From an uncultured Gammaproteobacteria bacterium (lineage in GTDB: Bacteria; Patescibacteriota; Microgenomatia; Daviesbacterales; UBA10151), in the NCBI GenBank assembly GCA_964649615.1, contig CAZYPW010000002.1:66969-130968 (forward strand): 64,000 bases of DNA. Reading direction: 5' to 3'. The notes beneath the pieces are model-generated. The model was not told the origin of the DNA and made no database searches. It worked only from the letters and a program-made list of their open reading frames with translations. This document shows, in pieces, positions 10,023 through 54,023 of this stretch (its first letter is position 1; each line of letters opens with the position of its first letter). Both the position numbers and the translations under genes were made by a program.

Positions 10023-11327
10023 TTATGGCAGAAATGACTTAATCAAACTAATTCCCTTTTGAATCATCCCTTTGATAGGAAGACTATTAGATAACATTGG
10101 CAAATGAATGCCTCCACCCTCATTTTGGATTGACCCATATAAAATTAACCCTGCGCTTGCGGAAAAAGCAGGAGAATCTATTTCTTCTACTAAACCAGCT
10201 AAACCTTCAATTTGGCCTAAGCGGGCTGGAAAGCCTAATACATATTTAGCCTGCTCTAATGCTCCTATTGTTTGTGACCCGCCACCGCAAAGAACCAATC
10301 CTGAAGGAATTTGGGCTCCAAATCCGCTTTTTTTAATCTCTTTTCCTACATATTTAAATATTTCATGCAATCTTGGCCTGATAATTCCATCTGATATAGC
10401 TTTAATGGAAATTTTTTGAACATCTTCTTCAATTCCTAAAGCCTTAACATCTAAAGACCCTTCCTCTTTCTTTTTTCTTCTGTCGCTTTCATCGTTTTGA
10501 TCATTTGAAATAGCCGGGATTTTCTCAACCTTATCCAACGACAGCTTAATTTTTTCAGCTGACTCCAACGATACTCTTAGGCCGACAGCCATATCAGAGG
10601 TGATATGCCGTGCACCAATTGGTATAACTGAGGAATAAGCTACAGAACCATCTATAAATATCACCACATCTGTTGTTTCCCCACCAATGTCAACCAAAAC
10701 TACCCCCAGCTCTTTTTCTGTATCTGTCAAAATTGCAAAAGAAGAAGCTATACCGGAAAAAACCAGCTCAGAAACATCTATGCCCACTTCCGATACACAT
10801 TTAACCAAATTTCTCATGGAAGTGGTAGAACCTGTAATAATATGCGTTTCAGTTTCAAGCCTTATCCCAGTCATACCTATAGGATCTTTAATACCTTCTT
10901 GCCCGTCAACTGTAAAAGTTCTGGGGATCACATGAAGGATCTCTCTGGAGGAAGGCAGGGGAACTGCTTTTGCAGCATCATTAACCCTGGCAATATCCCC
11001 CTCTTTTATTTCACCTTCAGGCTCAGCAACAGCTACCACTGCATGTGAATTAACGCTTTCAATTTGTGGGCCTCCTACTGAAATATAGGCTGAAGATATG
11101 GAATAGCCTGCCATTCTCTCTGAAGCCTCAACAGATTCCGTAATGGCAGTTATTGCTTCATCTATATCAACCACCTGATTTTTTCTGATTCCCTTTGAAG
11201 CAGTAGCAGAGATCCCTATTAAATTTATTTTTCCCGTCTCATCTACACTTGCAATTAGAGTTGCAATTTTTGAAGAACCAACATCTATTCCGCAAATAAC
11301 TTTATCTTTCATTTTTCTTAGGGGCAA
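10023..11327 (-). CDS. ftsA: Cell division protein FtsA (actin-like ATPase)
   Basis: ICGIDVGSSKI…, an actin-fold phosphate-1 motif, at the position upstream of ftsZ. Confidence 0.9.
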   Translation of the reverse strand: MPLRKMKDKVICGIDVGSSKIATLIASVDETGKINLIGISATASKGIRKNQVVDIDEAITAITESVEASERMAGYSISSAYISVGGPQIESVNSHAVVAVAEPEGEIKEGDIARVNDAAKAVPLPSSREILHVIPRTFTVDGQEGIKDPIGMTGIRLETETHIITGSTTSMRNLVKCVSEVGIDVSELVFSGIASSFAILTDTEKELGVVLVDIGGETTDVVIFIDGSVAYSSVIPIGARHITSDMAVGLRVSLESAEKIKLSLDKVEKIPAISNDQNDESDRRKKKEEGSLDVKALGIEEDVQKISIKAISDGIIRPRLHEIFKYVGKEIKKSGFGAQIPSGLVLCGGGSQTIGALEQAKYVLGFPARLGQIEGLAGLVEEIDSPAFSASAGLILYGSIQNEGGGIHLPMLSNSLPIKGMIQKGISLIKSFLP

Positions 11328-12093
11328 ATTTCACAATTGGCTTATCAAATCTCAAATCGATAACCTCTATCTCTTTATCATCTATTTTAGCCTCCTTTAG
11401 GATTAATTGTAAAGATGCAAGTTGATAGCTTACTGAAAGCTTAAGATTAAAAAATATTTTAGGGTTGGCATCTACAAATAATCCATTATCGGCAAGAGTA
11501 ATCAAACGGTTTATATTTATCCCCAGATTGTTTATGGTCGTTAATATTTTTTTAATATCTTCCATATTTGGCTCAGTGATAACTTTTCCTAATTCAATTT
11601 TTTGCCCAGACAGATAAATTTCAACCAAACTTAAACTCTCATCTTTATTAAAAATAATGCCTGTATCATCCACAATATATCCTCTATCTAAAATGTTTGA
11701 AGAAGATGTGGCCTCAACAAGAGAAAAAGATGAGGTCGCTTCATTTCTTATACTAACTAGTTTGGCGAAGGGTTGTCTGGCTATTAATTCAATGTTAATT
11801 ATATTTGGCAGCGATTTTGAAACAATCATATCTTTTATACAAGGATACCGGGGTTTCAAATCAGAAAATATTTTATGGAAATCTACATTTAAAATATGTT
11901 TGCCTAAAATTCCAAGTTTATTTTCAAATTTATCCCCATTTACACAAAAAGCTTTTTCATTTTTAATATTAATATTGCTGATGGAGAAAATTTTTAACTG
12001 CAAAAAATAGGCAGAGATACCAAGAAAGAGGATTAACAAAAAGAGCACTGCTGCCATAGCATATCTTATTTTTTTCTTTTTTTTAAACCTCAT
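11302..12093 (-). CDS. ftsQ: FtsQ/DivIB-like bitopic division protein (N-terminal TM plus a POTRA-like domain)
   Basis: A single N-terminal TM (AVLFLLILFLGISAYFL), in the conserved position between murG and ftsA. Confidence 0.6.
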   Translation of the reverse strand: MRFKKKKKIRYAMAAVLFLLILFLGISAYFLQLKIFSISNINIKNEKAFCVNGDKFENKLGILGKHILNVDFHKIFSDLKPRYPCIKDMIVSKSLPNIINIELIARQPFAKLVSIRNEATSSFSLVEATSSSNILDRGYIVDDTGIIFNKDESLSLVEIYLSGQKIELGKVITEPNMEDIKKILTTINNLGININRLITLADNGLFVDANPKIFFNLKLSVSYQLASLQLILKEAKIDDKEIEVIDLRFDKPIVKFAPKKNER

Positions 12094-14903: not shown

Positions 14904-15995
14904 CTAATTATTTTTGGAAATATTTAATAATATTCCAACTGCTGTTAAATTTGCTACCAATGCTGAACCTCCATAAGAAATAAAAGGCAGGGGAACTCCG
15001 GTTAAAGGAAGCAATGCTACCATAGATGATAAATTTATTACTACCTGTACACCAAGCCATGAAGTCAAACCAATTGCTAAAATCTTTCCAAAATTATCAG
15101 GGCAATTCTCGGAAATTTTTAATCCCTTAAAAATAAACACCACAAAGAGCATTATTAAAAATAATGTTCCTACAAAACCCAGCTCTTCCCCAACTATGCC
15201 AAAAATTGAATCTGTTGATACCTCAGGTATATATTCAAACTTTTGCCTTGAATGGGAAAGGCCTAATCCAAATAATCCACCCGATCCTAAGGCAATAAGC
15301 ACTTGAGAAATATGATAGGTAAAACCTTGGGGATCTGAAAAAGGATCTAAGAATGCCAATACTCTTTTAAGGCGGTAACTAGATGTAAAAATAAGTGCCA
15401 GTAAAGTTACAATGGCAGCTGGTATTACTAAGAGAAAATGCCAAAGAGGGCCACCTCTTACAAAATAAAGGGCAGCTGTAGCTAGAACAAAAACAATAGT
15501 TGAACCCAAATCCTTTTGAAATACAGCAATGATTAAAGTTACCACTCCTACCAAAGTAATAAACGGGAAAAATCTGACCCCCTTTTCAAAAATTGTTGAC
15601 AAAAAAATTATTCCAGTTAATTTGACAATTTCTGCAGGTTGAATTGTAATAAACCCCAGTTTCAACCATCTATGAGCTCCCCCGCCAGATATTCCCAACC
15701 CTGGTATAAAAACAGCTACTAAAAGTACAAGGGAAATTAAAAGTAGTGGAAAAGCTAATCGTTTAAATTTTTTATAATCTAAATTAGCAAATAAAAGTAG
15801 CGATACAAATCCTAAAACAACCCAAATAAGCTGTTGTCTAATATAATAGTAGCTATCATTAAAATCATTTAAAGCTTGTATAACGGAGGCGTCATAAACC
15901 ATCAAAAGGCCAAAACCAACTAAGAGACCAACTATAGATAACATCTGAAAATCTATCTGTTTATTTTGTTGCTGAAGGCGAAATCTAGTAAACAT
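14904..15995 (-). CDS. ftsW: SEDS-family lipid II polymerase FtsW
   Basis: SEDS motifs (…PLPFISYGGSALVANL…), at the dcw position next to mraY and murG. Confidence 0.85.
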   Translation of the reverse strand: MFTRFRLQQQNKQIDFQMLSIVGLLVGFGLLMVYDASVIQALNDFNDSYYYIRQQLIWVVLGFVSLLLFANLDYKKFKRLAFPLLLISLVLLVAVFIPGLGISGGGAHRWLKLGFITIQPAEIVKLTGIIFLSTIFEKGVRFFPFITLVGVVTLIIAVFQKDLGSTIVFVLATAALYFVRGGPLWHFLLVIPAAIVTLLALIFTSSYRLKRVLAFLDPFSDPQGFTYHISQVLIALGSGGLFGLGLSHSRQKFEYIPEVSTDSIFGIVGEELGFVGTLFLIMLFVVFIFKGLKISENCPDNFGKILAIGLTSWLGVQVVINLSSMVALLPLTGVPLPFISYGGSALVANLTAVGILLNISKNN

Positions 15996-19485: not shown

Positions 19486-20066
19486 ATTTTTGCCTTAATT
19501 TTAAATATAGCAGATAAAACAATATGTTTTTTTAAGTTTAACTGCTGAGGATCTATCTCTTCTATATCCTCACCTAAGGTTAATACTTTAATACTTTTGG
19601 CTTTACTTTGCAAAAGTGCACTGATAAATAAATTGCCTCCAATGCTTCCTGGAATATTCCTAAATTGCTCTGATGATAAATTTTGGCTATCTAAGAATTC
19701 TACAAATTTATTCAAACTTACTCCTGACTCCACCTCTATTAGTGCTTCCTCTACTCCAATTCCAAACCTGGTCACTTTACCTTTAACAGAAACTGTTTGA
19801 ATGTTTTTGGTTCTGTTTTTAATAACCAGCCCTGAGAATCCATAATCTGAAAGCATTACTTTACTTCCGGTTCCTAATAAAAAGAAGGGAATCTTTAATT
19901 CCCTGGACATACTGATAATTTTTATCAACTCAGATGTAGTAAAAGCTATAAAAAAAACTCTAGCAGGCCCCCCAACTCCTAAAGCAGCATAATTTTTCAC
20001 TTCCTCATTAAGTTTAAATCTCTCCTGCCCAAAAGAATTTATAATCAGCTTGTATTTATTATCCAT
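19482..20066 (-). CDS. murB: MurB-like FAD-binding domain protein (UDP-N-acetylenolpyruvoylglucosamine reductase, N-terminal domain only; 194 aa)
   Basis: ALGVGGPARVFF…KIPFFLLGTGSKVML…IPGSIGG matches the MurB FAD_binding_4 region. There is no C-terminal substrate domain. The stop overlaps the murA start in an ATGA junction. Confidence 0.6.
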   Translation of the reverse strand: MDNKYKLIINSFGQERFKLNEEVKNYAALGVGGPARVFFIAFTTSELIKIISMSRELKIPFFLLGTGSKVMLSDYGFSGLVIKNRTKNIQTVSVKGKVTRFGIGVEEALIEVESGVSLNKFVEFLDSQNLSSEQFRNIPGSIGGNLFISALLQSKAKSIKVLTLGEDIEEIDPQQLNLKKHIVLSAIFKIKAKI

Positions 20067-21261
20067 TTTCTAGAGTACTTTTTACTGCCTGAAAATCCGA
20101 CCAGGGAATTTCCCTTTTTCCATCAAGATTAATTGATTTTTCATGGCCTTTGCCAAAAATAGCTATGGTATCTCCCTTTTTCCCCAAACTATTTATAGCA
20201 AAATCTATAGCCTTTTTTCTATCATCAATTATAAAAAAATTCCTGTTTAAAGCTCCCCCTGCACTTTCAACTCCTTGCTTTATTTGCTGATTAATTTCTT
20301 GCAGTTGTCCCCTTGGATCTTCTGAGGTAATAATTACAAAATCAGCTAATTTTTTGCTAATCTCCCCCATTAAACTCCTTTTTTTAATATCCCTTTTACC
20401 CGCTGATCCAAAGATAGCAATTAATCTTCCTTTAGTTTCTTTTTTTAAGGTTTTGAGGGCTTGTTCTAAGGCATTAGGCGTATGAGCAAAATCTATAATA
20501 ATTTTAATACCTCTGTTACTGCTTATTTCTTCCATCCTTCCTTCTACTCCGCTAAATTCCTCAAGTTTTCTTTGTGCCACATTTTTATCAATACCCAAGA
20601 CAAAAGCCACAGCCAAAGCTGCTAAGGCATTTTCAAGATTATAATCACCAGGAATTCTTAACTTTAACTTTATCTCTTTCTGATTAAGATCTCCCTGGTT
20701 TAAACCAAAAGTAATTAATTTCTCTTTAAACACTTTTACTACGGCCGTCAGATTTTGATTAATAATTACTCTATCTGATTTTTCAATCAGTTTTATTTTA
20801 GTATTAGAATAATTCTCAAAAGTTTTGTGATAGTCCAAATGCTCATGGGTAATATTAGTGATTACCCCAACATCAAATTTAATCCCCCAAAATCTATATT
20901 GATCTAAGGCATGTGAGGTTACTTCCAAAACTAAATATTCATCTCCACTATGCTTTGCAGAATTTGCAAATTTTTGTATCATAAATGGATCAGGGCTCGT
21001 AACATGAAATCCTGTATCATAAGTTTCCCCTCCAATTTCAGCATTAACAGTAGAAACCATAGAAACTTTTTTTCCAGCAGCTTTTAGAATCTGATAAATC
21101 ATATTTACAGCTGTAGTTTTCCCATCAGTTCCAGTTACCCCAATCACCTTAAGTTTTCTAGTGGGAAATACATATATCCAATTTGCCAAAACAGCTTTTG
21201 GCAGGTGATAAAAATTATTAATAGTTGATTGAGAAATAACCTTTTTTAAAAGTTGCTTCAT
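20059..21261 (-). CDS. murE: UDP-MurNAc-L-Ala-D-Glu:diamino-acid ligase MurE (short N-terminus, 400 aa)
   Basis: GVTGTDGKTT, ITNITHEHLDYH, DYNLENALAALAV and the C-terminal TSEDPRG (DNPR-like), all MurE hallmarks. Confidence 0.8.
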   Translation of the reverse strand: MKQLLKKVISQSTINNFYHLPKAVLANWIYVFPTRKLKVIGVTGTDGKTTAVNMIYQILKAAGKKVSMVSTVNAEIGGETYDTGFHVTSPDPFMIQKFANSAKHSGDEYLVLEVTSHALDQYRFWGIKFDVGVITNITHEHLDYHKTFENYSNTKIKLIEKSDRVIINQNLTAVVKVFKEKLITFGLNQGDLNQKEIKLKLRIPGDYNLENALAALAVAFVLGIDKNVAQRKLEEFSGVEGRMEEISSNRGIKIIIDFAHTPNALEQALKTLKKETKGRLIAIFGSAGKRDIKKRSLMGEISKKLADFVIITSEDPRGQLQEINQQIKQGVESAGGALNRNFFIIDDRKKAIDFAINSLGKKGDTIAIFGKGHEKSINLDGKREIPWSDFQAVKSTLENG

Positions 21262-21540
21262 GTGCCTAATTATAACGTAAACGTTACAAGAAGTTTACGA
21301 TGTAATCGTAAACGATTATAAACTTCCGCGATTTGTAAGTCCGCGGTTTTCTTAAAAGTTTACAAGAAACTGCAGAAAACCTTAACTCAGTATACCACCT
21401 ATCCCGCGGAAGACTGTAATCACTTTAGCATTCATCCCCGCTTTAAGAAAGCGGGGTTTTCTGCTAGTGATTATAACATCAGAAAAATATTTAATGGATA
21501 ATTTCAAACTATATACGGCCGTGAGTAGTTTGAAATTTAT
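21262..21540. promoter_or_regulatory. A 280-bp structured intergenic leader upstream of murE. It has three CGTAAAC(G) copies in alternating orientation plus TTACAAGAA repeats, and a CTTCCGCG…CGCGGAAG long-range inverted repeat. Two plus-strand terminator-like hairpins lie at 21326-21353 and 21436-21462.
   Basis: Read directly. The hairpin CCCCGC-tttaagaaa-GCGGGG followed by TTTTCT is GC-rich in an AT-rich genome. A candidate plus-strand promoter TTTACG-17-TATAAA lies at 21294-21322. Confidence 0.35.
21501..21532. repeat. Direct repeat copy 1 (ATTTCAA-N8-ACGGCCGTGAGTAGTTTG), abutting the stop of the wHTH-Cas2-like gene
   Basis: 16/18 identity to the 22056-22073 copy. The core ACGGCCGT is a perfect palindrome. 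It is embedded in an 11-bp inverted repeat AATTTCAAACT/AGTTTGAAATT. Confidence 0.7.
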
Positions 21541-22041
21541 TTAATCCACATTATTTGACTCAATTACTCTAACCCAATCCTTTATTCCAACTTTTCTAAT
21601 GAACTTTCTCAACAGTTCTGTGCAATTTTTCTTTGTTACCCAAACACTTTGTTGCCAGGGTATAAATCCCCATGATTTTAATTTCTGCCTAAGAACATCT
21701 CTTGCAACTCTTCTTTTCTCAGGAATATCAAATATTATTATTCTCCATTTTCCATCCCATTTGTCCTCATCCATAAGTAATTTTGAGAAAAGAGCCTTTT
21801 CCTTACCCTTATCTGTTAATCTAAGAACAAGTTGAGTATCGTCAATAAAATCTACCAGACCGTTTTCTCTAAGTCTTTTTAGAGCTAAAGCAAAAGATGA
21901 TTTCTTTAAAGGATAATCCCAACCACTATGATAAGCATCATATCCTGGATTATTAATAAGATCATCAAACCTTATAACCCCATCCACTGATTTTTCTAAA
22001 GCTAACAAGATCAAGCTAGATAAACTTTTCTTTTTATACAT
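21541..22041 (-). CDS. Winged-HTH + Cas2-like (VapD/Cas2 fold) small protein, a putative PaaX-like transcriptional regulator; 166 aa
   Basis: The N-terminal ~90 aa look like a wHTH (…ALKRLRENGLVDF…). The C-terminus WRIIIFDIPEKRRVARDVLRQKLKSWGFIPWQQSVWV matches the Cas2 core pattern (b-strand-YD[IV]-x-x-x-KRR-x-K/R-L-x-x-x-L-x-x-x-G-x-R-x-Q-x-S-V-[FW]). No cas1 or array is nearby. Confidence 0.55.
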   Translation of the reverse strand: MYKKKSLSSLILLALEKSVDGVIRFDDLINNPGYDAYHSGWDYPLKKSSFALALKRLRENGLVDFIDDTQLVLRLTDKGKEKALFSKLLMDEDKWDGKWRIIIFDIPEKRRVARDVLRQKLKSWGFIPWQQSVWVTKKNCTELLRKFIRKVGIKDWVRVIESNNVD

Positions 22042-22073
22042 ATTTCAAGATTATCACGGCCGTGGGTACTTTG
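22042..22073. repeat. Direct repeat copy 2 (ATTTCAA-N9-CACGGCCGTGGGTACTTTG), abutting the start codon of the wHTH-Cas2-like gene and overlapping a -10-like GATAAT on the minus strand
   Basis: Read directly. A 10-bp perfect palindrome CACGGCCGTG. Confidence 0.7.
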
Positions 22074-22217
22074 TCGATAATAATCTTAAAAAAGTCTTAG
22101 CTTTAATTTTTCCAGGGAGCCAGAAAATCAGCTGTATACCTCCAAGTGTCCTAAGTAAACACCTCGATATGTTATTCACTGGGAGCAATTTTATAGTAAG
22201 CGAGGCTTGCTTTAAGC

Positions 22218-23921
22218 TCACTCCGAAGGAGCGATCTTAAAGTAGGTAAAAAGTTCTTTGGCTATTTCAAAAAAGGTGGGGGCTGCTGTTTCTGAACCAT
22301 ATACAGAAGATGAAGGTTGATCATATCTAACCAGCATCACAAATTTTGGATCATCGGCTGGGGCAAAACCCACAAATGAAGCAATGGTTTTATTTGGATC
22401 ATAATGCCCTGCAATAGGAATTTGAGCAGTACCTGTTTTACCGGCAATTTTAAACCCCTTAGGTTTAGCAAATTTTGCTTCTCCTTCCTCTACTGCTGCC
22501 ACCATCATCTCTGTTACAATCTTGGCAGTACTTTCTTTGATGACTTGTTTTACAATCTTAGGTTTTATCTCATAGGTATCGTTATCTCCTACAATTTTTT
22601 TTACAATTTGTGGCTCCATTAGAGATCCTCCATTAGCAATAGCTGCTACAGCCCTAACCATTTGAATAGGAGTAACTGCAATTCCCTGACCAAAGGAAGC
22701 TGTTGCCAGATCAATCTCACGCCAGTTTGTTTTATCCCTTATTTCAGGTGAGGATTCATCCTGCAAGTCAATTTTTGTCTGTTCACCAAAGCCAAAATTT
22801 TGCAAATATTCATAAAATTTATCCAAACCCAATTTTTGGGCAGTAAAAACCATTCCAGTATTATCTGAGTGAATAATTACCTCCTTTAAGCTAATTTCCT
22901 CCTGGTATTTATTATTCCAGGTTCTAATAATAAACCCACCTTGAGAGATTGGCCCTGAACATATATCACATTTGGTATCAGGTTTGACTAAATCCTCATT
23001 TATTGCTCCTGCCATCACTAAAACTTTAAAAGTAGAACCAGGCTCATACTGGTCAGCAACTACTGGATTTTTATAATTTTCTTTAGGAAAATCAAAATAT
23101 TTTAACGGATCATAATTAGGGTAAGAGGCCATTCCTAAAATAGCCCCTGTGCTGGGCTCCATCACTACCACCAAACCAGCCTTAGCCCCATATTTTTCCA
23201 TCCCTTTTTTAAGGATATTCTCTACTATAAATTGGACTGAACGGTCAATATGAAGCACTAAATCCTTACCATTTTTAGCATCAGTGGTTAAAAAATTACC
23301 TATCAAAATTGGTAAACCTAAAGCATCTTTTTCATGTTTAATTAAGCCTGATACACCCTTTAGCTCACCCTCATAAAAACCTTCAACTCCAAAATATCCT
23401 GTACTTGCCCCTTTAGCATCAGATCCGACAAACCCAAGCAGATGGGCGGTACTTGATCCTTCTGGATAAAAACGGAGGCTGCTTTGCTCAAAACCTACCC
23501 CGGTAATCTTTTGATCCTCAATCTCTTTTTTTTGCCCAACTGTGATATTTTTTTTCAAAGATACCCAATATAAATCCTGTGATAGCTTTTCTATAAAATT
23601 TTTAGCCAGCTCTTCAATTTGGCTTTCTTTCACATCAGGCAATAAAATTCTGGCCAATTTATAAACAGTCTCTATTCTTTTTTCTTTTTCAATTGATTTT
23701 GGCAGGCCAAAAAGAGAATATGCAGGATTAGTGGAAGCAATCAGAGTACCATCAGAAAAATGGATATTGCCCCGGGTAGCACTGACTCTTATGCTGCTTG
23801 TATACTGGTTCTCTGCTTGAGCTTGTAAAAACTCTGCTTTAACTATCTGCCAGTAAAAAAGCCTTAAGGTAATGCTTACAAAAAAGATTATAAAAAATAA
23901 TTTAATCCAATATATCCGCAT
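22218..23921 (-). CDS. ftsI: Penicillin-binding protein transpeptidase FtsI (class B PBP)
   Basis: An N-terminal TM, with STFK (SxxK), SDN (SxN) and KTGTAQ (KTG). Confidence 0.9.
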   Translation of the reverse strand: MRIYWIKLFFIIFFVSITLRLFYWQIVKAEFLQAQAENQYTSSIRVSATRGNIHFSDGTLIASTNPAYSLFGLPKSIEKEKRIETVYKLARILLPDVKESQIEELAKNFIEKLSQDLYWVSLKKNITVGQKKEIEDQKITGVGFEQSSLRFYPEGSSTAHLLGFVGSDAKGASTGYFGVEGFYEGELKGVSGLIKHEKDALGLPILIGNFLTTDAKNGKDLVLHIDRSVQFIVENILKKGMEKYGAKAGLVVVMEPSTGAILGMASYPNYDPLKYFDFPKENYKNPVVADQYEPGSTFKVLVMAGAINEDLVKPDTKCDICSGPISQGGFIIRTWNNKYQEEISLKEVIIHSDNTGMVFTAQKLGLDKFYEYLQNFGFGEQTKIDLQDESSPEIRDKTNWREIDLATASFGQGIAVTPIQMVRAVAAIANGGSLMEPQIVKKIVGDNDTYEIKPKIVKQVIKESTAKIVTEMMVAAVEEGEAKFAKPKGFKIAGKTGTAQIPIAGHYDPNKTIASFVGFAPADDPKFVMLVRYDQPSSSVYGSETAAPTFFEIAKELFTYFKIAPSE

Positions 23922-25099: not shown

Positions 25100-25492
25100 C
25101 TATTTCAATCGTTCTTGCTGCTTTTTCCAAAGATTTAAATCCCATACCTCAAAATGATCACCTGCACCGATAATAAACACCTCTTTCTTCAAATTTAAAT
25201 TCTCTATAAACTCTTGGGGAAGAATAAATCTTCCCTGAGTATCCAAGGTGCATTCCTCCGCTTTAGGAAAAAGCTTCAGCCTTTTTACTCTACCCTCCTC
25301 TGTGGAAAGTGGGAATTCCAGAATACTACCTGTTAATTTCGACCAATTTCTAGGATCAAATCCCCATATTTCCCCATTTTCCCCCAAAAGTATATAAAAC
25401 TTATCTTCATTCCCTAATTCCTTCCTAAACCTCTTTGGTAAAATTAGTCTATTTCTGCCACTGAAGTAAGTTTTAAATCTACCCAAGAACAT
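25100..25492 (-). CDS. mraZ: Transcriptional regulator MraZ
   Basis: The MFLGRFKTYFSGRNRLILPKRFR… duplicated MraZ fold, 130 aa, at the head of the dcw cluster. Confidence 0.9.
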   Translation of the reverse strand: MFLGRFKTYFSGRNRLILPKRFRKELGNEDKFYILLGENGEIWGFDPRNWSKLTGSILEFPLSTEEGRVKRLKLFPKAEECTLDTQGRFILPQEFIENLNLKKEVFIIGAGDHFEVWDLNLWKKQQERLK

Positions 25493-31001: not shown

Positions 31002-32081
31002 TTAATTAATAGTGTATCCTACTTGCGCAACTATTTGCTTAAAATCTGCTTTAAATTTCTCTTTATTAAATCTTTCTGCATTCTTTTTACAAGCTTGGGG
31101 ATCAATCCTGGCTTTTGATAATTTATTTATGGCATCTTTTATGCTTAAAATGTTTTGCTTGCTAAACAATATCCCTGTTTTAGAATCAACCAAAGCTTCA
31201 CAACTACCACCTTGGTTATAAGCAATTACAGGCTTGCCTAAAACTTGAGCCTCTAGCGAAACCAATCCAAAATCTTCCTCTCCTGGCACAATTAAAGCCC
31301 GGCATCCAGCCAGCACTTTTACCAAAAGCTCTTCATCTGCACTACCCAACATTTCTACATTTTGGTGCCGGTCAGCGCTAACTTGTAGATTTCTTAACTC
31401 TGGCCCAATTCCTATCACTTTAAGGCTTAAGCCCAATTTTACACAAGCCTCAATTGCTAAATTCACTTTTTTATATTTATTAAGCCTTGAAACAACCAAG
31501 AAATATCCTCCATCAAAAGTTTCAACATTTTTGAATCTATCTAAATCCACAAAAGGGTAAAGCACTTTTGAATCTCTTCTATAAATTTTCTTAATTCTTT
31601 TTTGGGCATTTTTAGAACCTGCTATATAAAAATCAACTCTTCTGGATGAAATTTGGTCATAAATTCTTAAATTATTTAAAAGAAAATCTAATTTAGGATA
31701 AATTTCGGAGGAGAGATGCCATAAAAATCTAGGCGGAGTATGGCAATAAGATAAATGTAGCGTTTGAGGTTTGCTGATAACTGCTTTGGCAAATCTGGTG
31801 GTGTGGGATATTACTAAATCATATTTATCAAAAGAAAATTGCTCAAAGGCAATGGGGTAGAGGGGGAGTAAGGCTTTATAAAAATTTCTCCAACCAGGAA
31901 TTTTTTGTAAAAAAGAAGTTATAATTTTTTTGGTACCAAATTTTTGCAATAGCAGAGAATTGGTTTTATCGTAAACAGAGGTGTAAATTGGAGCATTAGG
32001 AAAAATTTCACAAATTCCTAACAGTACCCTTTCTGCTCCTCCCCATTGGACTAAATCATCATGGACAATTGCCACTTTCAT
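31002..32081 (-). CDS. Glycosyltransferase family 4 (GT-B)
   Basis: EEDFGLVSLEAQVLGKPVIAYNQGG (the EX7E-type GT4 motif). The start was reset to the internal ATG, which overlaps the upstream stop in an ATGA junction. Confidence 0.75.
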   Translation of the reverse strand: MKVAIVHDDLVQWGGAERVLLGICEIFPNAPIYTSVYDKTNSLLLQKFGTKKIITSFLQKIPGWRNFYKALLPLYPIAFEQFSFDKYDLVISHTTRFAKAVISKPQTLHLSYCHTPPRFLWHLSSEIYPKLDFLLNNLRIYDQISSRRVDFYIAGSKNAQKRIKKIYRRDSKVLYPFVDLDRFKNVETFDGGYFLVVSRLNKYKKVNLAIEACVKLGLSLKVIGIGPELRNLQVSADRHQNVEMLGSADEELLVKVLAGCRALIVPGEEDFGLVSLEAQVLGKPVIAYNQGGSCEALVDSKTGILFSKQNILSIKDAINKLSKARIDPQACKKNAERFNKEKFKADFKQIVAQVGYTIN

Positions 32082-33199
32082 AAATATGCCTCCAGAGTTT
32101 GTTTTGCTAATTTTTCCCAATTAAATAACTTAACTCTTTTTTTACCCTTATTAACTAGGTCTTGCCTTAACTTTTGAGATTTTAAAACAATATCTATCTT
32201 GGCTACCATATCTTCCATATCTGATGGATCAAAATAAATAGCAGCTTCTCCTCCAACCTCTGGTAATGATCCCTTATTTGAGGAAACAACAGCACAATCA
32301 CAAGTAAAAGCTTCTAAAATTGGTATGCCAAAGCCTTCCTCAAAAGATGGCATAATAAAACTTTGAGCATTTTTATATAAAGCTACTAAATCCTCATCTG
32401 TCACATAACCTGTATAAATTATATCCTTTTGGGAGTACATACTTTTAACTTTCTGCCAAAAATAATGATCATTACCAGATAAAACAAGTTGCAAGTATTG
32501 ATATCTTTCTCTTAATTTTAAAAAGGCCTCAATTAATCCTTCAACATTTTTATGTGGATGTGCATTACCCACATAAAAAATATAGGGAGGCTTAACATTA
32601 AACTTCTTTATCACCTGATTAATTTTCTTTTCCCTCATTATATTCGCGATCGCGAATATAATGCCGTCAACTGCTTCATAAGTTACTGCTACTTTATCTT
32701 CAGCTATTTTCCATTCACTAACTAATAACTGTTTCACATAATTTGATGGGACCAAAATTTTCTCCGCTTTTGAGATAGCATTCTTAAAGACTTTTTTGTA
32801 AGCAAACTGTTTTATTTTATAAGTAACAGGATTTAGAGTGGTTGCTCTTCTCATTTGAAAGTGTTGATGAATTAAATCATGAATTGTAACTATAAACTTG
32901 TGTTTATTAAAAATTGGGACATTAAAATGGGGAAAGTGAACAAGGTCTGGTTGTAAACTATCTAATAATTTAGGTAAATTAATTTGTTCATTAACTCCAT
33001 ACCATTTAAAGTTAGCCAGAACTTTATGGAAGTTACTATGATAAACTAGAGTATCATATTGTTCTTTAAGTAAAAGAATATAATACTCATTTTTGTGGTC
33101 TAGTTTTGCTAAACTGGCTATCAAATTCCTGATATACCTGCCAATTCCTGACTCATTGTACATTCTTCCATCAATTACTATTTTCATAATTCTTCTCAC
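32078..33199 (-). CDS. Glycosyltransferase family 4
   Basis: FEEGFGIPILEAFTCDCAVVSS…, the GT4 C-terminal domain motif. Confidence 0.8.
   Translation of the reverse strand: MRRIMKIVIDGRMYNESGIGRYIRNLIASLAKLDHKNEYYILLLKEQYDTLVYHSNFHKVLANFKWYGVNEQINLPKLLDSLQPDLVHFPHFNVPIFNKHKFIVTIHDLIHQHFQMRRATTLNPVTYKIKQFAYKKVFKNAISKAEKILVPSNYVKQLLVSEWKIAEDKVAVTYEAVDGIIFAIANIMREKKINQVIKKFNVKPPYIFYVGNAHPHKNVEGLIEAFLKLRERYQYLQLVLSGNDHYFWQKVKSMYSQKDIIYTGYVTDEDLVALYKNAQSFIMPSFEEGFGIPILEAFTCDCAVVSSNKGSLPEVGGEAAIYFDPSDMEDMVAKIDIVLKSQKLRQDLVNKGKKRVKLFNWEKLAKQTLEAYL
32636..32663. repeat. A 28-bp perfect palindrome CATTATATTCGCGATCGCGAATATAATG inside the GT4 coding sequence
   Basis: Read directly. The core GCGATCGC is GC-rich and unusual in this AT-rich genome. 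Confidence 0.8.
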
Positions 33200-51973: not shown

Positions 51974-52761
51974 AGAATTATTCTCTTTATTTTTCTCAAG
52001 GGGGTTAACATTTTAGCTGTGAGATATTTCAAACCAGAAATTTTTGTCCAGGGAGAGGCAATAAATTCAGGATTTTGATATAAAACTTCTGGAAATTTAA
52101 ATCCATCTTTCACTTGATTCCCTATTTCATACTTAAATTTATCATATTCTCTTTTTTTAGAAGATCTTTTTAAATGAGTTACATGCAAAAATGGAGCATC
52201 CAAAAAAATAATCTTTTCTCTTTCCTGAATTAATTTTCCTTTATTATCAAAAAAGCCCTCTTTTCCGTAAGGCCAATCTAAATGTAGGCCAGAAATACTC
52301 TTACTGAAGGCTTTTAAACTCAAATGCCCGGTTTTGCCTAAAATTTTATATCTGCCTGCTTTCTCATCCTGTAAATGATAAATATCGCCAACTGGAACCA
52401 CCATGGGTACAACTATGCCTTCAATTTTACTGCCAATTTTCTTAATTTCCTTTACCAGACTGTTAATAGAATCTTTCCACCAGATCTCATCTCCATCTAA
52501 AATTAGTATCCAGTCTGCCCTTGACTCTTCAAGCATCTTCTGGCGCATTTTAGTAAACTCAAGGGGGGTAACCTTTCCCACCTGTTTAAACTCAATCTTC
52601 TCTCCTTTAATCTTTTTTAACTCTTTTATAATATCTACAGTTCTGTCTTTAGATCCTGTATCATAAATCAATACTTTATCTACATAATCCACCACACTCA
52701 TGACTGCAAAATACAAAAAATTTTCTTCATTATTCACAATAGTATTAGCCCAAACTTTCAC
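51970..52761 (-). CDS. GT2-like glycosyltransferase
   Basis: LIYDTGSKDRT and ILILDGDE (DxD). Confidence 0.55.
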   Translation of the reverse strand: MKVWANTIVNNEENFLYFAVMSVVDYVDKVLIYDTGSKDRTVDIIKELKKIKGEKIEFKQVGKVTPLEFTKMRQKMLEESRADWILILDGDEIWWKDSINSLVKEIKKIGSKIEGIVVPMVVPVGDIYHLQDEKAGRYKILGKTGHLSLKAFSKSISGLHLDWPYGKEGFFDNKGKLIQEREKIIFLDAPFLHVTHLKRSSKKREYDKFKYEIGNQVKDGFKFPEVLYQNPEFIASPWTKISGLKYLTAKMLTPLRKIKRIIL

Positions 52762-54023
52762 TTTGATTTCCTTAATTTAAATATTAACCAAATTAGAGGA
52801 TAGAGAAAATTAAAAGTCGTACCAGCTAATACTGTTAAAGATGCACCAATAACTCCATAACTTTGTATCATCAGATAACCTAAACTTCCGATTAATAATA
52901 AATGCCCAATTGATACCCATATAAAAACATCTGGCCTGCCAAAATAAAAAATAACACTATGGTGCACTGGTAAAGAGATTAGGAAAACAAGCATTGCTAG
53001 GAATAAAAATATAAATGGCATAATTACCTCCTGGTAGTTTGAACCTAAAAGTATTGGAATAAGATATATTAAGATAGGAATTGTTAAAATGCCCAATAAA
53101 CATAGGCTCAAAACAAACAGTTGGAATTTTTTAAAATAAACTAACATATCTTTACTGCTTTGAAATGAGGCAAATTTTGGTGCTGCCACTAGCCCCAAAG
53201 CAGAAACCAGTTGCGGCATAACTTGAACCAGTTGAGTCGCAGCTCCATAAATTCCTACCTCCCTGCTAGAAAGTAGCGCCGCGTTTAAATAAATATCTAA
53301 TCGGGCGGAAAATGCAGCTATAGCGGTGAAGACAGCAACAGGAATATTATACTTAAATAATTCTTTAGACAAACTAAATTCATCCTTGCTTGCTAAAATT
53401 TTCCTGGAGGGAAGGATAAAAAGAGTTACAAAAAAACCAAAAAATGGCATTAATATATATACTAATAGGCTGTTTTCAACATTAAGCATAAGAAAATACG
53501 CTAGTATAAGTATCAAGATTAATCTTAAAGAGTTAGTAAAAATATTCATCGCACTCCAAAGGAAATATTTCTGGTATGCCTGTAAAGAGGAAGTTGCAAA
53601 GCTAAAAAGTAAAGCTCCTCCTATACCAAAGCAGATTAATCTTAACGGTAAAATTAACTCCGCCTTATGAAAAACTTCAGTTGCTAAAAATGGAGCTAAA
53701 AAGAAAATAATCAAAGAGGATACAAACCAAGCCATCAATTTTATTTCCAGGCTTAGTTTTAAAAATTGGTATGCTTTTATGCTATTTACTGCCAAATTTG
53801 AAGATACAAAACGAATTAATCCGGTATTTGTCCCTAAATCTACTATATCTGCAATTAAAACTAGAGTTGTCAGGGCAATTGTGAGTAATCCAAAATCAGA
53901 GGGACCTAGCAGTCTTGCTAAGATTACATAGAATAAGGCTCCTAAAACCCCATTAATAAGCGTACCAAAAACTGTAATTTGAGATTGTTTAAAAGTGGCT
54001 GTTCTAATAATAGATCTGAGCAT
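52758..54023 (-). CDS. wzx: Wzx-type polysaccharide flippase (MOP superfamily)
   Basis: About 12 TM segments, with the N-terminus FGTLINGVLGALFYVILARLLGPSDFGLL typical of the Polysacc_synt family. Confidence 0.65.
   Translation of the reverse strand: MLRSIIRTATFKQSQITVFGTLINGVLGALFYVILARLLGPSDFGLLTIALTTLVLIADIVDLGTNTGLIRFVSSNLAVNSIKAYQFLKLSLEIKLMAWFVSSLIIFFLAPFLATEVFHKAELILPLRLICFGIGGALLFSFATSSLQAYQKYFLWSAMNIFTNSLRLILILILAYFLMLNVENSLLVYILMPFFGFFVTLFILPSRKILASKDEFSLSKELFKYNIPVAVFTAIAAFSARLDIYLNAALLSSREVGIYGAATQLVQVMPQLVSALGLVAAPKFASFQSSKDMLVYFKKFQLFVLSLCLLGILTIPILIYLIPILLGSNYQEVIMPFIFLFLAMLVFLISLPVHHSVIFYFGRPDVFIWVSIGHLLLIGSLGYLMIQSYGVIGASLTVLAGTTFNFLYPLIWLIFKLRKSK

Follow-up and report, generated by a model that had tools for sequence, protein, structure and literature searches.

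A short PaaX-like gene beside murE in Daviesbacteria is bracketed by two putative operators and may encode an autorepressor

Background

PaaX, the phenylacetyl-CoA-responsive repressor of Escherichia coli and Pseudomonas, has a winged helix-turn-helix (wHTH) followed by a Cas2-like domain (PF20803), an arrangement represented by the structures 8a39, 3l09 and 3kfw. The operator of the E. coli protein is a pair of inverted repeats with wide spacing, TGATTC-N27-GAATCA, and the protein represses its own promoter, Px, through steric hindrance of RNA polymerase (PMC9493321). In this work we describe a gene for a 166-amino-acid (aa) protein with the same order of domains, located in the division and cell wall (dcw) cluster of a Daviesbacteria genome, within a stretch of 64 kb that was analysed as a whole (the window). 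The gene is bracketed by two related palindromes, which are putative operators of the encoded protein. PaaX is the best structural match of this protein, the operators are again widely spaced inverted repeats, and autorepression by occupation of the own promoter, known for PaaX (PMC9493321), is proposed here.

Several differences from PaaX were found. The protein has 166 aa, against about 305-316 aa, and has no PaaX_C effector domain, since it stops at residue 166. It scores 29 bits with the PaaX equivalog profile TIGR02277 (cut-off 264.55), covering only profile positions 60-143 of 279, and its family is not linked to paa catabolic genes at any locus. The operators add an invariant central ACGRYCGT and a second copy past the stop codon, and the protein belongs to a multi-paralogue family in bacteria of the candidate phyla radiation (CPR). 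Rv0674 (3kfw) lacks the Cas2-type beta1 aspartate, which the 166-aa protein keeps. With Cas2 and VapD the protein shares a ferredoxin-like beta-alpha-beta-beta-alpha-beta fold, the motif (F/Y)DI..(K/R)R...QxSVW/F and weak Cas2 profile matches. However, it stays below the gathering thresholds, is fused to a wHTH and has no cas1, CRISPR array or toxin-antitoxin partner.

Looping repressors such as LacI (O1/O2/O3), GalR (OE/OI) and lambda CI (OL/OR) also use a promoter operator together with a second cognate operator hundreds of bp away. The lambda repressor gene is itself located between two operator regions, and lac O3, at the 3' end of lacI, exerts feedback on lacI transcripts. The pair described here differs in that it brackets the repressor gene alone, its layout is kept across dozens of paralogues, and looping is only proposed. 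Nothing that combines PaaX with Cas2, Patescibacteria or CPR was found in the searchable literature. While the type of protein is known by its domains, the operator-gene-operator module and the expansion of paralogues in Daviesbacteria and related CPR bacteria appear to be undescribed there.

Two palindromic sites bracket the gene

The window carries its dcw genes on the minus strand, with mraZ followed by rsmH, ftsL, ftsI, the 166-aa open reading frame (ORF), murE, murB, murA, murF and mraY (Table 1). Between ftsI and murE there are 956 nt, with the 166-aa ORF as the only gene. A sequence-only reading of this DNA had described such a gene, bracketed by repeats, and both the ORF and the two repeats (21501-21532 and 22042-22073) were found. 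The repeats are identical at 24 of 32 positions and belong to related palindromes of about 34 bp with a ACGGCCGT core. The perfect 10-bp palindrome CACGGCCGTG is confined to the upstream copy, while TACGGCCGTG stands in its place in the copy past the stop codon, so that the perfect palindrome common to both is the 8-mer ACGGCCGT. Since either copy forms a long palindrome with CGGCCG at its centre, "direct" and "inverted" repeat are equivalent labels. The repeats first described are thus real and gene-specific, with a shared perfect core that shrinks to ACGGCCGT.

At one mismatch or less, CACGGCCGTG occurs twice in 64 kb, both times at the gene-flanking sites (0.05 expected), and two or more occurrences were seen in 0 of 100 shuffles. 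Sites of the ACGGCCGTG type also number two, and no third own-type site is present in the window. The check for other copies of the repeat therefore confines the motif, within the window, to the two flanking sites. The downstream palindrome consists of 19+19 nt with 84% complementarity, and the centres of the two operators are 541 bp apart. The upstream copy coincides with TCGACA-16-GATAAT, the best promoter-like match of the region (10/12).

Table 1. Features of the window discussed in the text
Feature	Position	Strand	Remarks
mraZ	25100-25492	minus	dcw cluster
ftsI	22218-23921	minus	dcw cluster
Upstream operator (putative), in own promoter	22043..22077	minus	promoter match, footprint, family geometry
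Upstream -35, TCGACA	22072-22077	minus	
Upstream core, ACGGCCGT	22056-22063	minus	
Upstream -10, GATAAT	22050-22055	minus	8 nt, then ATG at 22041; leaderless-type geometry
166-aa ORF, short PaaX-like protein	21541..22041	minus	ATG start; ORF, Pfam, AlphaFold2 and Foldseek
Downstream (auxiliary, putative) operator, AATTTCAAACTA..ACGGCCGT..TAGTTTGAAATT	21500..21537	minus	begins 4 nt past stop
Downstream core, ACGGCCGT	21515-21522	minus	
Probable separate murE promoter, TATAAT at 21269-21274	21262..21274	minus	7 nt, then murE ATG at 21261
murE	20059-21261	minus	dcw cluster; ATG at 21261
Perfect 28-bp family-type palindrome, CATTATATTCGCGATCGCGAATATAATG	32636-32663		inside ORF 32078..33199 (minus), GT4-like glycosyltransferase

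The layout of gene and putative operators is a property of the family

Homologues of about 165-175 aa number 493, labelled mostly Candidatus Daviesbacteria, and the wider family of short wHTH+PaaX_M proteins comprises 3869 cluster representatives at E<=1e-3 (783 at E<=1e-10). A scan of one genome per species gave 46 loci (loci from this and other searches carry numbers with L), and the site statistics are based on 50 non-redundant gene copies. Several genomes have at least three paralogues, such as the complete genome CP066688.1 (L008, L011 and L018), and at least seven orthologous groups are seen in the protein tree. An upstream site centred on CGRYCG is present in 49/50 genes, its centre lying 18-23 nt before the ATG in 41 of these 49 (range 18-60). 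A downstream site with the exact core follows 45 of the 50 genes, 8-37 nt past the stop codon; three further genes have a degenerate or stop-overlapping site, giving 48/50 in total. The centre-to-centre distance of the two operators is 540 +/- 10.6 bp in 45 genes.

Both sites share a consensus with CA at -14/-13, central ACGRYCGT and TG at +13/+14. The upstream sites, with the consensus TGACA...CGRYCG...TA-rich...TG in 45 genes, have in addition TGACA at -35 and a TA-rich -10, giving the promoter geometry TTGACA-16/17-(-10)-~8-ATG. The downstream sites have neither the conserved -35 TGA nor the conserved -10 T of the upstream ones. The arms on either side of the core differ among genes. Arm identity between upstream and downstream sites is 0.70 within a gene and 0.46 between genes (permutation, 0/10000), and the arm types (TTCAAAC, CCAAAC, GACAAAT, CATTAA, TCAAAAT, TACAAAT and others) follow the protein tree. 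Independent drift would not keep this likeness within genes, so the protein encoded between the sites is the simplest common reader of both. Comparison of the family thus shows the fold, the two sites with their promoter geometry, and the conservation and gene-specific co-variation of these sites.

The layout extends beyond the close relatives. Paired sites were found with homologues of 36-40% identity on contigs of 39-46% GC (L067, L069, L074, L075 and L076), while a homologue of 31% identity (L070) does not have the layout, which is present in 5/6 distant homologues overall. At L067 the module forms a stand-alone unit, with a divergent upstream neighbour, a convergent downstream neighbour and both sites.

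The protein is PaaX-like

The Pfam search gave a match to PaaX_M (PF20803) at residues 93-164, with E=5.5e-23 and 81.3 bits against a cut-off of 24; PF07848 was not detected at E<=1. Searches of PDB by sequence, with the single sequence, a profile or the Cas2-like domain alone, gave only weak matches (3kfw, E=0.085; 8a39, E=0.19), among which eL22 and VapD were noise, and a fold search was therefore needed. The AlphaFold2 model, made from 39 homologues, has a predicted local distance difference test score of 79 overall and of about 90 in the C-terminal Cas2-like half. It contains an N-terminal wHTH of helices and strands at about residues 7-93 and a Cas2-like ferredoxin fold at about residues 95-166, with beta-alpha-beta-beta-alpha-beta within 99-162. 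The top Foldseek match in PDB was E. coli PaaX 8a39 (E=3e-5, 164 columns), followed by Rv0674 (3kfw), Streptococcus pyogenes Cas2, 3l09 and many MarR-type wHTH proteins. S. pyogenes Cas2 (5zyf) superposed on the model with a root-mean-square deviation of 2.6 A over 69 columns, and Cas2 structures in general with 2.6-3.3 A over about 70 columns.

According to these profiles and the model, the 166-aa protein is a short PaaX-like protein, wHTH plus Cas2-like domain without PaaX_C. This agrees with the domain arrangement proposed at first from the sequence. The label of orphan Cas2 given at the same time does not hold: PF09827 (17.5 bits, threshold 23.8) and TIGR01573 (21.6 bits, threshold 24.5) both remain below threshold, and PaaX is the best structural match. 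A Cas2 identity was rejected for these reasons and for the fusion to a wHTH. The absence of cas1, CRISPR array and partner gene, also pointed out at first, stands: Tandem Repeats Finder showed no CRISPR-like array in the window, the gene is flanked by ftsI and murE, and no cas genes occur in the annotated neighbourhoods of the homologues. At least one paralogue, P0044 (locus L005/L011), carries the GenBank name "CRISPR-associated endonuclease Cas2" and is a wHTH+PaaX_M protein without CRISPR context. The "Cas2" label on some NCBI paralogue records is a mis-annotation by similarity.

The alignment of 39 family sequences has a mean column identity of 69%, and D105, in the FDIPEKRR motif at the Cas2 beta1 position, is invariant in it. 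By analogy to PaaX and Cas2, the Cas2-like domain may mediate dimerisation. This half is nearly invariant while the paralogues differ in DNA specificity, which suggests that it has a function common to all of them, for example dimerisation or the binding of an effector or a partner.

Orthologues beside murE and contexts of the paralogues

The sequence-only reading described the gene as inserted into the dcw cluster. We compared the window with four other Daviesbacteria assemblies, among them CP066688.1 (L008). In all four an orthologue lies directly 5' of murE, with protein identities of 90% (L071), 75% (L006), 73% (L008) and 65% (L017), and both sites are kept although the flanks cannot be aligned. 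Comparison of the ftsI-murE junction thus contradicts an insertion, and a recent one is excluded. The other side varies: in L006 (duplicate locus L001) an SDR gene and an ORF on the opposite strand lie between the orthologue and ftsI, and in L017 a co-oriented, unannotated ORF of 246 aa is immediately upstream. Since the adjacency to murE is kept while the neighbours on the ftsI side vary, the gene travels with murE. Among the five orthologues the only conserved upstream block is of about 42 nt (ATCGACAAAsTAyyyACGryCGTGATAAyCTTGAAAyATG). Downstream only TTCAAAs-N5-ACGryCGT-N5-sTTTGAA is conserved and its surroundings diverge. These footprints and the synteny indicate that the gene belongs ancestrally to the dcw region of Daviesbacteria and is neither an insertion nor a CRISPR remnant. 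It represents one of at least seven paralogue groups, all of them old and each with operator arms of its own.

The orthologous groups occur in the contexts ftsI/SDR-X-murE, PBP2-X-dprA, dnaB/tRNA-Leu-X-pepN-efp, X..mreB, tRNA-Trp-X-tRNA-Thr, X-ZIP and X..PRTase, where X is the family gene. Synteny is retained within most groups, which are old (about 55-65% identity). Further neighbours are ribosomal protein L1, GDPD, PMT_2, Wzy_C, RNase HII, DHODH, CDF, VIT1 and ClpB. At all loci the neighbours are dcw or other housekeeping genes. No single functional theme among them was convincing, and envelope genes recur. The next gene is co-oriented in 33/50 cases and convergent in 17/50, the downstream site being present in either case, and the distance from this site to the next start codon varies from 11 to about 740 nt.

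Proposed mechanism and alternatives

On comparative grounds we propose, with a probability of roughly 0.7, that the gene encodes an autorepressor with one operator in its promoter and an auxiliary operator downstream, acting through a loop or a roadblock. We infer that the encoded protein is the binder, that its binding represses and that the downstream site serves one of these two functions. A dimer would bind the palindrome of about 34 bp, CA(-14/-13)...ACGRYCGT...TG(+13/+14), whose AT-rich arms would be specific to each paralogue. One copy would fill the spacer of the gene's own sigma-70-type promoter, and as about 8 nt separate the end of this promoter from the ATG, a leaderless mRNA is probable. 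Binding at this copy would exclude RNA polymerase and lead to negative autoregulation, as for PaaX at Px. Autoregulation at the upstream copy had been put forward before, and it gains strongly from the comparison of sequences, the TCGACA-16-GATAAT geometry being found in 49/50 genes. The second cognate copy, just past the stop codon and about 540 bp away, would most likely be the auxiliary operator. It may cooperate with the promoter operator via a DNA loop enclosing the gene, or carry a protein roadblock at which transcription stops, whether it comes out of the gene or in from a convergent neighbour.

Several observations weigh against this proposal. A loop that bridges the two operators needs a higher oligomer, and the helical phasing of the pair is weak (R=0.33 at 10.5 bp) and confounded by relatedness. 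Paralogues whose operator arms differ share an almost invariant recognition helix, KKSxLxxALKRLRExG. The sister clade with CCAAAC arms (L007, L009, L072 and L073) is found in four different contexts, so rearrangement of family genes does happen. Finally, family-type sites are also found away from family genes: 19 nt before the dprA start in L044 (10875-10909), in L039 (2724-2758), as a third site that carries the arms of the local paralogue at a distance of 7 kb from it, inside a glycosyltransferase gene of the window (Table 1), and as solitary palindromes without a family gene nearby at the metagenome loci that remain after chance matches are set aside. For this reason some targets in trans are likely, and the family proteins may have other targets. 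In the available sequence most sites are gene-flanking pairs.

The off-gene sites were surveyed as follows. In 875 kb, 9 further sites match the generic pattern CA-N9-CGRYCG-N9-TG, where about 0.5 would be expected from our own base-composition estimate. The L039 site lies 5' of a small ORF with a CxxxCxxC motif. In its arms, the palindrome in the glycosyltransferase gene is similar to operators from the paralogue group linked to dprA (L049, L021 and L034), and the ATG in ..TAATGAGG.. is in frame with the glycosyltransferase, as the Met of "IANIMREKK". This palindrome may be a target in trans, an internal promoter or a roadblock. A metagenome scan for dcw-type sites gave 15 loci, about half of them chance matches in high-GC contigs. 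Intergenic solitary palindromes of 36-40 bp, AATGTTTCAAA-N-ACGRYCGT-N-TTTGAAACATT, were seen in low-GC JGI contigs (L056, L058, L063, L065 and L066), and L056 has a second one, ACGACCGT-centred, about 100 nt from the first. Once chance matches are set aside, these solitary sites do not suffice to define a regulon.

A broader role is conceivable, although rather unlikely. The operator pair and the protein would form a self-contained looped or roadblocked unit that combines autoregulation with a transcription boundary between housekeeping operons, for example ftsI/murE, PBP2/dprA and dnaB/pepN, in genomes that largely lack Shine-Dalgarno sequences and use leaderless mRNAs. The conserved Cas2-like domain may then sense a common signal. 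If true, this would be an undescribed operon insulator or valve, with at least five orthogonal copies per 0.8-Mb genome.

We consider it unlikely that the downstream copy gates transcription into murE-murB-murA-murF-mraY and that the protein is a dedicated cell-wall regulator in the dcw operon, as proposed at first. The prevalence of co-oriented next genes fits such gating, as do the downstream operators near the murE promoter in L017 and L071 (centres 38 and about 59 nt from the ATG) and a downstream site (L038, L050) or a separate family-type site (L044) about 20 nt before the next gene. Several paralogues also adjoin the envelope genes ftsI, PBP2, mreB, ftsW/rodA, PMT_2 and Wzy_C. However, the downstream site is equally kept beside dprA, pepN, ZIP, tRNAs, L1 and RNase HII and with convergent neighbours, it lacks the -35 and -10 positions conserved in the upstream site, and orthologues differ in how far it lies from the murE start (38 to 257 nt). 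In addition, murE has a putative TATAAT-7-ATG promoter of its own, 230 nt past the site in the window. A site that is independent of the neighbour, devoid of promoter features and variable in distance is most likely not conserved for dedicated gating of murE; being family-wide, whatever gene follows, it lends little to that part of the sequence-only reading. A roadblock effect on read-through is compatible with these data. A general promoter function of the downstream site was also rejected, as the -35 and -10 are not conserved and the distance to the next start varies.

It is improbable that the downstream palindrome acts as RNA, as a 3'-terminal hairpin which stabilises or terminates the mRNA, with the Cas2-like (RRM-like) domain as a possible binder. 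In favour of this, the palindrome is in the transcribed 3' untranslated region, where it would form a stem of 13-19 bp, the aspartate at the Cas2 beta1 position is invariant, and relatives of Cas2 and VapD include RNases. However, no U-tract follows the palindrome, and the same invariant CA/TG and ACGRYCGT positions recur in the promoter spacer, a probably untranscribed stretch. A constraint at the DNA level is preferred because it explains both copies, while a role as RNA explains only one.

That the repeats delimit a mobile or recombining cassette which brought the gene into the dcw cluster is highly improbable: the gene and both sites have been duplicated as a unit to many genomic places, the CCAAAC-arm clade is found in differing contexts and solitary palindromes of like type occur in other low-GC contigs, but no transposase, integrase or recombinase accompanies any copy in the annotated neighbourhoods, the position upstream of murE is identical in five genomes at 65-90% protein identity, the old paralogue groups are mostly syntenic, the upstream repeat looks like a functional promoter, phage matches are none and plasmid matches are only distant actinobacterial PaaX regulators, the tRNA-Trp/tRNA-Thr locus offers no empty site with a single palindrome (the L019 gap holds rpmG), and the window has only two own-type sites, not many near-identical copies.

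The probable murE promoter and the spacer

The PaaX-like gene is separated from murE by a region with features of its own. The sequence TATAATTAG(G/C) stands immediately 5' of the murE start in the window, L071, L008 and L017 (ATG, or GTG in L008), and in L006 a TATAAT lies about 22 nt upstream of this start. From these sequences, murE probably has its own TATAAT-7-ATG promoter. Almost no Shine-Dalgarno sequences are seen in the genome of the window, and at many operon-first genes a TATAAT-like hexamer ends about 7 nt before the start codon, for instance 11302..12093, 14904..15995, 20059..21261 and 52758..54023. Because of both features leaderless expression appears normal, and the sequence pattern suggests that leaderless mRNAs are widespread in this Daviesbacteria genome.

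The 240-nt spacer from the downstream operator to murE (21262-21500) is unusually structured, with z = -5.5 and -6.25 on the two strands. Among its elements are a GC hairpin of 9 bp (21436-21456), a long-range pairing of 10 bp between 21372-21381 and 21455-21464, and an extended -10, TGTTATAAT; Rfam has no match to it. The 90% orthologue L071 lacks this structured spacer and has a gap of 80 nt instead. Just 5' of murE, an element of 52 nt (21270-21321) with GTTTACG/CGTAAAC hairpins recurs in L020 (2936-2987) with 92% identity. The L020 copy directly follows mreB and has the opposite orientation relative to the flanking genes, and its hairpin shows a compensatory change, GTAAAC/GTTTAC versus GTTCAC/GTGAAC. 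The element could be a conserved terminator/promoter module or the binding site of another factor. In the window, Rfam at gathering thresholds detected tRNA only, and its e-value mode gave nothing beyond sub-threshold chance matches for 21150-22300. A search with the family profile found no second family member among the ORFs of the window. Protein-DNA mutual information in the family is dominated by phylogeny in its top pairs, with hints at residues 1-6, 119 and 123.

Conclusions

The break in the dcw cluster of Daviesbacteria corresponds to an ancestral regulatory gene and not to a mobile insert, and the analysis corrects the "Cas2" annotations of these genes. The family provides about 100 naturally paired examples of protein and operator, with paralogue-specific arms around a common ACGRYCGT core, a data set suited to the study of DNA recognition rules in PaaX-type wHTH proteins and to the building of orthogonal repressors. 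If looping or roadblocking is true, operators that bracket a gene would represent an unusual form of gene insulation. CPR bacteria have tiny genomes and almost no characterised regulation, and for them this family offers a concrete and testable regulatory module.

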